Assembly: GCA_035688915.1 (NCBI GenBank)
Contig: DASSMK010000346.1
Span: 25,389-89,388 of the forward strand
Direction: 5' to 3'
Origin: Thermoanaerobaculia bacterium
GTDB taxonomy: Bacteria; Acidobacteriota; Thermoanaerobaculia; Gp7-AA8
Length of the DNA: 64,000 nt
The position numbers and the translations under genes are program-made. Below are positions 10,640 to 12,535 of this stretch, one piece after another (the stretch's first letter is position 1; each line of letters opens with the position of its first letter). The notes under the pieces were generated by a model. That model ran no database searches. It worked only from the letters and a program-made list of their open reading frames with translations, and had not been told where the DNA came from.

Positions 10640-12535
10640 TCACTCGCTCCACAGCCGCACGACGACCACGCCAGCAACCGTTTCCTTCACGGGCTGGTCG
10701 TTCGTTTCGTGGAGTTCCACCGTGAGATAGTTCTGGATGCTGTGACTCTTCGCGTTCTGCGCTTCGATCAGGCGCAGCACTCGGTCGCGACGCTCCATGA
10801 TGCCCTTCGCTTTCGTGCGCACGATCTCTGCGACCGCCGTGCTCTCCGCCGCTGTGGCGAGCTGCTGCCAGAAGTACTGAACGAAGGGCCCGGTGAAGAC
10901 GATGTGCTGCTTCTCGAACGAGGTCTTCGGCTCGACGAGGTACGCGTAGCTGCGGTCCGCGCCGAAGGACGCGAGCACCGCGCGTGCCGTTCCCGCGAGC
11001 GCCGAGATCTCGCCAGCGAGCGGCTCCACGACGCGTGGCGACTTGAGTAGGCCGATCCGACCGACGGTCCCGAAGTACGTCTCTTGAAGCGCCAAGAAGT
11101 GCTCACCCTTCAACCGCCCGATCCACGTCAAGCGCTTCTGGCGCTCGCGCCGCTGGATCGTGCGCGGCGGCATGCCGTCGGGACGCGTGAAGCGCCACTC
11201 AATCTCGTAGTACCGCCCATCCATCGCGAGGATCTGCGGGGCGTCGTTGGGAAACATCGGCGGTCGAACCGTTCCGTGGAGGAGCATCGCGGCTTCAGCT
11301 TTCGGCCCCGTACCATCGCGGTCGATTAGATCGCATGCGCCGGACATTACGGCGATGAGCTCCCTGCCGACGAGTGGCCTGCTCTTAAGTCGCCGTCCGA
11401 CGAGATAAACGTCACCGTGCTGCGGTAAAGGGTTCTCAGATCGTGGCGCAGTGGAGATGCGACCTGCAGCGTACAGTTCAGCGAAGGCGTTCGACGGCGG
11501 CTCAAAGTACGCGGCCAAGCCAGCGAACGGCTTTTCGCCACCGCCCGCCGACGGCGCGCCGTAGGCGTGTGCGACGCGCTCGGCGAGCGCAGCCGCGCTC
11601 AGTTCCTTCACGTAGTCATCGAGGGCCTGCCCCTCGTTCTGGAGGCTCAGATGGTAGAGCCTTCCGAAGTCCGCAATCGTGAGGTTCCGCAGTCGCTCCT
11701 CGACCCATGCGCTGGCCTCCTTGAGTACGGTCGGCCAGGACTGCTGGATCGGTTCGAGGAACGCTGATGCTGCGCACGTTCGGAAGATGTCGCCGATCGC
11801 GAGCAGCTCGTGCGGCTCGTTCGTCGCGAGGGCCTGTTTCGAGATGAAGCGGAATCGGACGGCGAGCTGCTTCGCCGAATCCCGGAAGTCCTCCGCCACA
11901 GCCTGACTCCCTTGCGAGGAGATGAGCACGAACGCCGGCGCTGTGTGGGTAGGATCCGCGTTCGCCACCTCGCGGACTTGGCGGAGGTAGTCGATCGCGC
12001 GCTCGCGCGCCGCGTCGTAGACGCCGACTGGTGTCGCGCCGCTGGCGGCAAAGGGAACAGCGTCGGAGAGGTAGAGGTCGAGGAACACGACATCGGCGCT
12101 TGCGACGCGTTCCGCCGGCGTATCAGAGGCGAAGCGCAGAACAGGCGGCGCGACCGCTTCTAAGAGCTCCTCAAGCGGCCGGAGTTGCGCGAGCTTACTC
12201 TGCCGATCGAGGCTTACGTCGTCGAAGAGGCGCTGCAACGCATCACGCGTCTCTGCCGCGACCGCCACGCCCTCTACGATGCCAAGATGAAGGTCCCATA
12301 GGCGACGCACGCGCATGACGTCCGTCGTGAACCGCTCGTAGTCATCGAGCGTGTCGTCCGAGACGACTGCGTTGAGATCGTTGCGAACCGCGGGCACGTC
12401 TTCAAATGCCTGCACAAACTGGTTAAATGCGTTCTCCGAGATTTCCGCCGGTCGCGGCGGATCGTATGCATCGTCCACGATTGCGAGTCGCTGCACCTTC
12501 CCCGTGTGTGCCGCTTCGATGAGGAAATTAACCAT
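10640..12535 (-). CDS. receiver (REC)-like N-terminal domain protein with an uncharacterised C-terminal domain of about 450 aa; last gene of the Ssp-like operon
   Basis: N-terminal beta1-like LAIVDDAYDPP, beta3-like ADVVFLDLYLSDA, beta4-like APAFVLISSQGSQ and ...FISKQAL resemble CheY-fold landmarks, but with an insert of about 110 aa. The start ATG at 12535 lies 2 nt after the upstream stop (12528-12530). Confidence 0.6.
   Translation of the reverse strand: MVNFLIEAAHTGKVQRLAIVDDAYDPPRPAEISENAFNQFVQAFEDVPAVRNDLNAVVSDDTLDDYERFTTDVMRVRRLWDLHLGIVEGVAVAAETRDALQRLFDDVSLDRQSKLAQLRPLEELLEAVAPPVLRFASDTPAERVASADVVFLDLYLSDAVPFAASGATPVGVYDAARERAIDYLRQVREVANADPTHTAPAFVLISSQGSQAVAEDFRDSAKQLAVRFRFISKQALATNEPHELLAIGDIFRTCAASAFLEPIQQSWPTVLKEASAWVEERLRNLTIADFGRLYHLSLQNEGQALDDYVKELSAAALAERVAHAYGAPSAGGGEKPFAGLAAYFEPPSNAFAELYAAGRISTAPRSENPLPQHGDVYLVGRRLKSRPLVGRELIAVMSGACDLIDRDGTGPKAEAAMLLHGTVRPPMFPNDAPQILAMDGRYYEIEWRFTRPDGMPPRTIQRRERQKRLTWIGRLKGEHFLALQETYFGTVGRIGLLKSPRVVEPLAGEISALAGTARAVLASFGADRSYAYLVEPKTSFEKQHIVFTGPFVQYFWQQLATAAESTAVAEIVRTKAKGIMERRDRVLRLIEAQNAKSHSIQNYLTVELHETNDQPVKETVAGVVVVRLWSE

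Follow-up and report, generated by a model that had tools for sequence, protein, structure and literature searches.

What does the last gene of an sspABCD operon contribute to a phosphorothioate (PT) DNA-modification module? The question is raised by a 64,000-nucleotide (nt) stretch of a Thermoanaerobaculia metagenome-assembled genome, referred to below as the window, whose positions are used for all coordinates. A minus-strand operon with the order sspA-sspB-sspC-sspD continues there into a gene for a kinase-like protein and ends with a gene for a 631-amino-acid response-regulator-like protein, here called the regulator. In the proposal made here, the regulator and the kinase-like protein form a cytoplasmic two-component-like pair that acts together with the SspABCD module, the regulator being its output; for the whole chain of this proposal, up to a released effector, the odds are put at roughly even (about 0.5). 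That the two proteins form a cognate kinase-receiver pair working with Ssp is highly probable; the release of a toxin by phosphorylation is much less secure.

The regulator gene, at the coordinates given by the initial annotation of the window, is a single open reading frame (ORF) on the minus strand, running from an ATG at 12535-12533 to a TGA at 10642-10640, and its minus-strand reading starts MVNFLIEAAHTGKVQRLAIVDDAYDPP; the plus strand over the same positions gives a translation riddled with stops. An independent gene caller applied to another assembly of the same DNA predicted an identical 631-residue product whose gene overlaps the upstream one in the same way, and the N termini of homologues line up with this ATG. 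The TAA of the kinase-like gene (12530-12528) falls inside the regulator start, in the string ATGGTTAA, so that the two genes overlap by 8 nt and are not separated by the 2-nt gap first reported. In most other called loci the overlap amounts to 1 to 4 nt, with short gaps in two (L006 and L009). The regulator gene is indeed the terminal gene of the operon, with the next downstream ORF on the opposite strand, and a search of the sequence beyond it showed neither a promoter nor a terminator consensus.

The N-terminal half had been read as a CheY-type receiver (REC) from four motifs, all of which are present: LAIVDDAYD (with D21, D22, and D25), FLDLYLSD (D153), VLISSQGS (S206/S207), and FISKQ (K233). 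The distance from D21 to D153 is 132 residues, in agreement with the estimate of about 130, and the interruption put at about 110 residues is modelled as an insert of about 100, made of six predicted helices between β1 and β2 (block predicted local distance difference test [pLDDT] scores of 74 to 88) and present in every aligned homologue. The model places the signature motifs at the C-terminal ends of β1, β3, β4, and β5, as in receivers, within a (βα)5 flavodoxin-like fold of the kind that defines CheY-like receivers, and structure comparison of the N-terminal part aligned 110 to 130 residues at 2.5 to 3 Å. Across an alignment of 90 relatives with about 20% overall identity (A3), the signature motifs are invariant or at least 97% conserved, with D21 found in all 90 sequences and D22 in 89. 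An aromatic residue is common at position 230 (F in 70 of the 90, Y in 6), which is read here as the equivalent of the CheY Y106 switch position. Because five signature positions at the receiver strand ends are conserved in the 90 relatives, the REC interpretation holds. On this in silico evidence the N-terminal half is a predicted receiver whose phospho-acceptor pocket is complete and whose α1 region is enlarged. Its genomic context, an adjoining and overlapping kinase-like gene with an invariant H564, is the support for D153 as the predicted target of phosphorylation by the cognate kinase.

The C-terminal part comprises about 370 residues (259 to 631) and not the 450 first estimated. It opens with a helical linker in which Y308 is invariant and D289 and E301 are conserved in the same 90 sequences. 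Residues 258 to 631 were modelled separately (pLDDT 77.5) and searched against the PDB with Foldseek, whose top 20 matches were all E. coli MazF or Kid, with probabilities of 0.82 to 0.99, a best E value of 0.011, and template modeling (TM) scores by target of 0.50 to 0.56. Matches to MazF, Kid, CcdB, and CptN structures came from two programs, with PDB entry 5cr2 among those from Foldseek, and the SH3-like β-barrel with a C-terminal helix that characterizes the MazF/CcdB topology is present. In a profile-profile comparison, residues 365 to 500 of the 90 sequences were set against five MazF/Kid/ChpBK/EndoA sequences entered by hand, and the alignment was collinear over 99 columns (MazF 2-107), with a score of 23.9, a pairwise E value of 0.001, and a probability of 22%. 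Forty column shuffles scored 10.8 ± 2.2, with a maximum of 17.5, which places the score about 5.8 standard deviations above them; two further controls, a reversed profile and an unrelated REC profile, reached 11.0 and 9.2, respectively. The hhalign alignment pairs G374-D375 with the "GD" that opens MazF and PemK, and the helix at 477-491 with the MazF C-terminal helix. Since Foldseek and the profile comparison agree, with pairing of the GD and of the C-terminal helix, residues ~368-491 are assigned to the MazF/Kid/CcdB fold; as the structural tools give no ranges, these limits were derived from the secondary structure together with the hhalign alignment. Neither Pfam PemK_toxin nor an hmmsearch of the C-terminal profile against PDB sequences gave a match.

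The domain thus classified shares its fold with MazF/Kid(PemK)/ChpBK, the gyrase poison CcdB, and CptN/ToxN, and its profile alignment is collinear, taking in the N-terminal "GD(L/I)" strand and the C-terminal helix. Most members of this fold are endoribonucleases. Unlike MazF-type toxins, the domain is fused behind a receiver, lacks an antitoxin pairing, contains extra secondary-structure elements, is followed by an additional C-terminal domain, and has an invariant set of its own, namely, D375, C401-D402, W447, and R493. G374-D375, G421, and W447 occur in 90 of the 90 sequences, R493 in 88, R476 in 72, and K450 in 68. The polar residues D375, C401, D402, K450, and R493 look catalytic rather than merely structural, and the domain could be an RNase of divergent type, could poison a protein in the manner of CcdB, or could bind nucleic acid. 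For the last 130 residues (503 to 631), which are poorly conserved in sequence across the superfamily, structure searches returned no fold beyond the MazF-type ones. The suggestion that the C-terminal region could be an effector is supported by a fold of effector type, a MazF-like one and not a classical nuclease, whereas the PglZ/alkaline-phosphatase option was rejected for residues 260 to 631, with no such fold or profile match in Pfam or the structure search. No housekeeping enzyme was matched either, and none of the observations that the initial annotation had named as speaking against it was made, a missing acidic pocket in the homologue alignments included; within the reach of computation, its interpretation is supported.

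The kinase-like nature of the upstream gene is borne out: it encodes a true H-box within a DHp and an ATPase domain of the kinase type, and its stop overlaps the regulator start both in the window and in most called loci. Pfam places HATPase_c_3 at residues 115-217 and HATPase_c at 667-767, while NCBIfam and alignments with histidine kinases of the PDB (ThkA, ZraS, and HK853) span residues 523-767, covering a DHp with its H-box and then the ATP-binding domain. Among 22 homologues, with identities down to the 29% of the Acinetobacter baumannii protein, H564-E565 is invariant, as are the N (N673/N677), G1 (D711-x-G713-x-G715), and G2 motifs of the kinase domain and the Bergerat motifs of the N-terminal module (E27/N31/D34, D122-x-G-x-G126, and G163...G168); the middle region is highly conserved as well. 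The protein is accordingly described, from its sequence, as a predicted soluble MORC-type GHKL ATPase joined to a DHp with the His-Glu pair and a kinase ATPase domain.

The defence context proposed for the pair is confirmed by sspABCD in the same operon, and it extends well beyond the window. Close homologues of the regulator number 36, all of about 640 residues and none annotated, and a profile search of 1.84 billion representatives placed the regulator family at 742 clusters (50% identity), with E values up to 1e-10 for 545. Among the best 150 relatives listed, the full-length members nearly all have 610 to 750 residues and without exception keep the whole architecture, a uniformity that rules out effector swapping among them. 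Ten distant family members had no match in Pfam or PADLOC. Homologues of the kinase-like protein exceed 1,000, and it is better conserved than the regulator (70% versus 51% identity to the nearest relative). Twenty-one related loci were collected through six close and two distant family members and a scan of species-representative genomes, the latter adding Sphingomonas, Devosia, Chelativorans, Rhizobium leguminosarum, Blastomonas, and others. In tblastn searches with the window proteins, sspB, sspC, and sspD adjoin the pair in all 21 loci, and the kinase-like gene lies directly upstream of the regulator position in every one; the regulator itself was matched in 20, the remaining locus (L009) being below the sensitivity of the search yet having been fetched via its regulator. 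The pair and sspBCD are arranged in tandem, divergently, or convergently. Identities of the kinase-like protein and the regulator to the window proteins covary (70/51, 63/39, and 47/23%) while SspC stays at about 30% in most loci, from which it follows that the pair behaves as a cassette exchangeable between Ssp modules. No methyltransferase lies inside the window operon; the neighbor is sspBCD in all 21 loci, and methyltransferases occur only beside distant relatives of the kinase-like protein.

One locus of an uncultured alphaproteobacterium (L021) deviates in the place of sspD, which is found downstream of the pair and not beside sspC. Its matches are partial (SspC residues 38-589, kinase 24-504, and regulator 13-303), and the locus may be decaying or rearranged.

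The position of the pair is that of the known restriction partners of Ssp. SspE and SspFGH (PMC9646914 and PMC8092258) occupy the same genomic place, have the same presumed role of a nonmodifying partner of sspBCD, and are likewise exchanged as cassettes independently of the sspBCD phylogeny. SspE combines a DUF262 NTPase with a DUF1524 nickase, a Walker A motif is present in SspF, and the C terminus of SspH is FtsK-like (PMC8092258); none of them uses a His-Asp phosphorelay; neither the Walker A motif nor the FtsK-like C terminus was detected in the window pair. Identity with SspE or SspFGH was rejected, as neither protein had a Pfam or PADLOC match to them, the presence of SspE/F/G/H models in PADLOC being unconfirmed. 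The SspFGH study found 84% of sspBCD loci to be without SspE or SspFGH and anticipated further partners (PMC8092258). The Ssp locus of A. baumannii global clone 2 is very common and has no known restriction partner (PMC12421847), and according to the literature about 62% of the genomes of A. baumannii carry this locus. In strain VB1190 (L023; record positions 546593-555934), a kinase-like gene and a gene for a 637-residue regulator-like protein face convergent sspD/C/B genes, with no sspE visible. This regulator scored 41.6 bits against the broad family hidden Markov model, keeps the DD, D, T, K, and "PCDL" motifs, and belongs to a sequence cluster of 1093 members; hhalign of the narrow family profile with it, or with a 209-residue Bacteroides receiver, was not significant. 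A histidine kinase or two-component system beside the Acinetobacter ssp genes has been noted in passing, with speculation about regulation or a new Ssp variant (PMC7464106 and PMC12421847). No experimental work on the kinase-regulator pair was found in the literature, the comparative-genomics papers on Dnd and BREX in Nucleic Acids Research do not mention it, and MADS was rejected as a relative, nothing in the MADS preprint matching. Because the pair stands beside sspBCD in all 21 related loci, it is probably an uncharacterized "restriction" arm of Ssp defence.

Pairs of the same kind have been predicted in silico next to restriction-modification systems (Bellieny-Rabelo et al. 2021, PMC8011034), and the receiver prediction is therefore not new for the class. 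In these pairs the kinase-like protein consists of HATPase_c_3, a new DHp (HEF_HK, PF19191), and HATPase_c, and the neighboring protein is a divergent receiver (Response_reg_2, PF19192) with no other known domain; they are enriched beside C5 and N6 methyltransferases and type I/II restriction genes, and phosphorothioation, Ssp, and a C-terminal effector are not mentioned. The window pair shares with them the soluble kinase-like protein (HATPase_c_3, DHp with His-Glu, and HATPase_c), the divergent receiver with DD, D, Ser/Thr, and Lys and long loop insertions, and the DNA-modification neighbors; the direct adjacency of the regulator gene to such a kinase-like gene is seen in the window and in all 21 loci. 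The earlier study gives no function or fold past the receiver, whereas the window regulator has a fused module of about 370 residues with a MazF-like fold. The window proteins had no match to PF19191 or PF19192 at E values up to 10, the presence of PF19192 in the library copy being unconfirmed. The A. baumannii kinase-like homologue reaches 18.8 bits against PF19191, below the cutoff of 24.1, and an Acinetobacter pragensis relative of the A. baumannii regulator has the UniRef name "Response receiver domain-containing protein," which suggests PF19192 membership.

The methylation-linked relatives of the kinase that were inspected have short regulators of 209 to 340 residues, with a separate nuclease or hydrolase gene in two of three: a Bacteroides finegoldii plasmid (L022) carries a 209-residue receiver, an HNH nuclease, and an N6 methyltransferase; a Burkholderia aenigmatica plasmid (L025) a type I M subunit, a 228-residue regulator, and an MBL-fold hydrolase; and Campylobacter jejuni conjugative plasmids (L024; 38 records, common on Campylobacter tet-type plasmids) a 340-residue regulator with dcm. 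Short receivers beside separate nucleases in methylation systems fit a logic in which the receiver controls an effector. A similar concept is known from the defensive two-component system Detocs (DtcABC; Rousset et al. 2023, Cell), in which a kinase-like sensor reportedly phosphorylates a receiver fused to a toxic anti-phage effector. Detocs reportedly has three genes, including a buffer receiver, and an effector of the purine nucleoside phosphorylase type that degrades ATP. Unlike the window pair, it is not known to have a MORC-type module or a DNA-modification partner, and the PADLOC scan gave no Detocs match, the presence of Detocs models in the library being unconfirmed.

In the mechanism favored here, the MORC-type N-terminal module of the kinase would engage DNA and read PT marks, present or absent, and this reading would set the autophosphorylation of H564. 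The phosphoryl group would pass from H564 to D153 of the receiver, where it would lift an intramolecular inhibition of the MazF-like domain. The freed domain would act as the toxic or restricting effector, cleaving RNA or single-stranded nucleic acid or poisoning a protein as CcdB does, and would stop phage replication, possibly at a cost to host growth. In the many sspBCD loci without SspE and SspFGH, the pair would be their functional counterpart.

Several points weigh against this proposal. The regulator had no match in Pfam (even at E values up to 10), PADLOC, or NCBIfam, and none to PDB sequences by phmmer. When its N terminus was compared by hhalign with a hand-made profile of nine classical receivers, only 11 columns aligned (E value, 0.03 to 0.06), the sole matched stretch being the β3 strand (aDVVFLDLyL against pdlvllD), which carries D57 in CheY-type receivers; the receiver assignment consequently rests on structure and conserved residues. 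The catalytic residues of MazF are lost, R29 corresponding to the variable position 392 and T52 to the invariant G421, so that RNase activity is not implied by the fold alone, and the real activity could reside in the last 130 residues. Sensing, phosphotransfer, and effector activity are each predicted from sequence and structure, and the signal received by the kinase, as well as whether PT switches it on or off, is an assumption of the model.

An appreciable, if small, likelihood is given to a pair that is purely regulatory, tuning the expression or activity of the Ssp modification genes or of another restriction gene, in which the C-terminal half of the regulator would be a DNA- or PT-DNA-binding output and not a toxin. 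A regulatory role has been proposed for the Acinetobacter genes (PMC7464106) and for the methylation-linked relatives (PMC8011034), and the loss of the MazF catalytic residues, the binding of single-stranded nucleic acid by MazF-fold proteins (as in PDB entry 5cr2), and the final 130 residues without a fold match all agree with it. However, Pfam, NCBIfam, and the structure search detected no helix-turn-helix or other known DNA-binding output, and most loci inspected contain no other restriction gene for the pair to control. The pair also stays beside sspBCD even when divergent or convergent and is exchanged as a unit, as is typical of restriction modules, and the apparently catalytic polar set also speaks against this reading.

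A low probability is assigned to a reading in which the effector proper is the MORC-type ATPase, which would clamp, compact, or cleave DNA in the manner of the GHKL-containing BbrUII/HgiDII, with the receiver protein as a phosphate sink or a targeting or restraining adaptor. The N-terminal GHKL module does match the BbrUII/HgiDII restriction-enzyme family (NCBIfam, 3e-23; PADLOC REase_II, 5e-9), and both the far better conservation of the kinase-like protein and its conserved middle region favor such a role; yet the match is confined to the ATPase fold (profile positions 41 to 205 of 659), Pfam scans at E values up to 10 found no nuclease motif in the protein, and a conserved 370-residue extension of the receiver with invariant residues is hard to square with a mere sink. 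Very improbable is a never-phosphorylated pseudo-receiver, with the two proteins joined in a constitutive complex or forming an addiction module of toxin-antitoxin type by which the island would be stabilized. In favor of it are the silence of Pfam Response_reg, the large insert in place of α1 (normally the kinase-docking helix), and the hint of toxin-antitoxin ancestry in the MazF-type fold. However, pseudo-receivers usually lose the acidic pocket, whereas here even highly divergent sequences keep the five signature positions with few or no exceptions, and the H-box His and the ATP-binding motifs of the partner's kinase domain are kept likewise.

What appears new is the constant partnership with a PT module across a large family and a MazF/Kid/CcdB-type fold with its own invariant residues for the fused output. 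A wider claim is put forward only tentatively, and may well prove too broad: that a large share of the "orphan" SspBCD systems, those of A. baumannii included, have their missing restriction arm in this pair, which would also be the first His-to-Asp phosphorelay to couple MORC-type sensing of a DNA-backbone modification to the freeing of a fused MazF-fold toxin, one whose Cys-Asp-centered active site would be new. If this is true, modification-based immunity can run through a phosphorelay, bacterial MORC-type ATPases acquire a defined sensory role, and a receiver-gated MazF-fold effector joins the toxins of defence. By its size and its adjacency to sspBCD in the 21 loci, the conserved two-gene module is a concrete candidate for the missing Ssp partner, and the predictions for H564, D153, D375, and C401/D402 make the model directly testable.

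Table 1. Features of the regulator gene and of the ssp operon, in window positions
Feature	Position	Strand	Basis or remarks
Response-regulator-like gene, 631 aa (amino acids)	10640..12535	-	Receiver with insert, helical linker, MazF-like domain, C-terminal α/β domain
Receiver (REC) domain, residues ~14-258	11762..12496	-	Predicted from model and conserved residues
Helical insert of ~100 aa in place of receiver helix α1, residues 28-130	12146..12454	-	Model
D21-D22, metal-binding acidic pair after β1	12470..12475	-	Codons verified
D153, predicted phospho-acceptor Asp, end of β3	12077..12079	-	90/90 sequences
S206, Thr/Ser position, end of β4	11918..11920	-	S 88/90, T 2/90
K233, conserved Lys after β5	11837..11839	-	90/90 sequences
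Helical linker, residues 259-357	11465..11761	-	Model helices 260-283, 287-301, 305-325, 350-357
MazF/Kid/CcdB-fold domain, residues ~368-491	11063..11434	-	Structure and profile comparison
C401-D402, family-specific invariant pair, end of β2 of MazF-like domain	11330..11335	-	C 87/90, D 88/90
C-terminal α/β domain, residues 503-631	10643..11029	-	Confident model, pLDDT 81-94
Kinase-like partner gene, 783 aa	12528..14879	-	MORC-type GHKL ATPase, conserved middle region, DHp, kinase ATPase domain
H564, predicted autophosphorylated His, H-box ILHELGRAT	13188..13190	-	Aligned to H-box His of solved kinases
ssp phosphorothioate modification module	14895..21307	-	Upstream in same operon; PADLOC and Pfam
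sspA	21307-20015	-	PADLOC SspA 2e-136; Pfam Aminotran_5
sspB	20018-19122	-	PADLOC SspB 1e-78; Pfam DUF4007
sspC	19233-15703	-	PADLOC SspC 2e-249; Pfam AAA_16
sspD	15827-14895	-	PADLOC SspD 1e-112; Pfam PAPS_reduct (PAPS reductase)

Convergent with the regulator gene, the ORF at 9410-10618 (+) encodes 402 residues with no match in Pfam, PADLOC, or NCBIfam and no tblastn counterpart in the 21 related loci; either it is a gene restricted to this lineage, or it may be spurious, an artifact of high GC content. Other genes recur around subsets of these loci. Just upstream of sspA, two of them (L005:351-1178 and L002:320-1144) have a gene for a T5orf172/MUG113 (GIY-YIG-like) protein of about 275 residues, which could supply some of the systems with an additional nuclease. 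Where sspBCD diverges from the pair, a large gene (>520-620 residues) with no Pfam match on record follows sspD (L003/L004:1-1128 and L006:1-995) and might be a second restriction partner. A protein of 806 to 808 residues lies beside some loci (L005:12155-14581, L007:18386-20806, and L002:1-198), with 72% identity between two of the copies; it has no Pfam match and contains the GHKL-like motifs ITNGIDA, YDNGVGQ, and GKYNMGGAG. The window has no homologue of it at the matching position, and BLASTP against the 857-residue protein encoded there gave no hit. More broadly, the window resembles a conflict or defence island, with ORFs at 6380-8953 (-), 26497-30204 (-), 36581-39862 (+), 45020-48946 (+), and 50708-53197 (-), whose products include an NB-ARC and TPR STAND protein (the 857-residue protein), a 1235-residue protein with Mrr_cat restriction-endonuclease and AAA domains, an AAA_16 protein, and two CHAT-domain (caspase-like) proteins, one of them with many TPRs.

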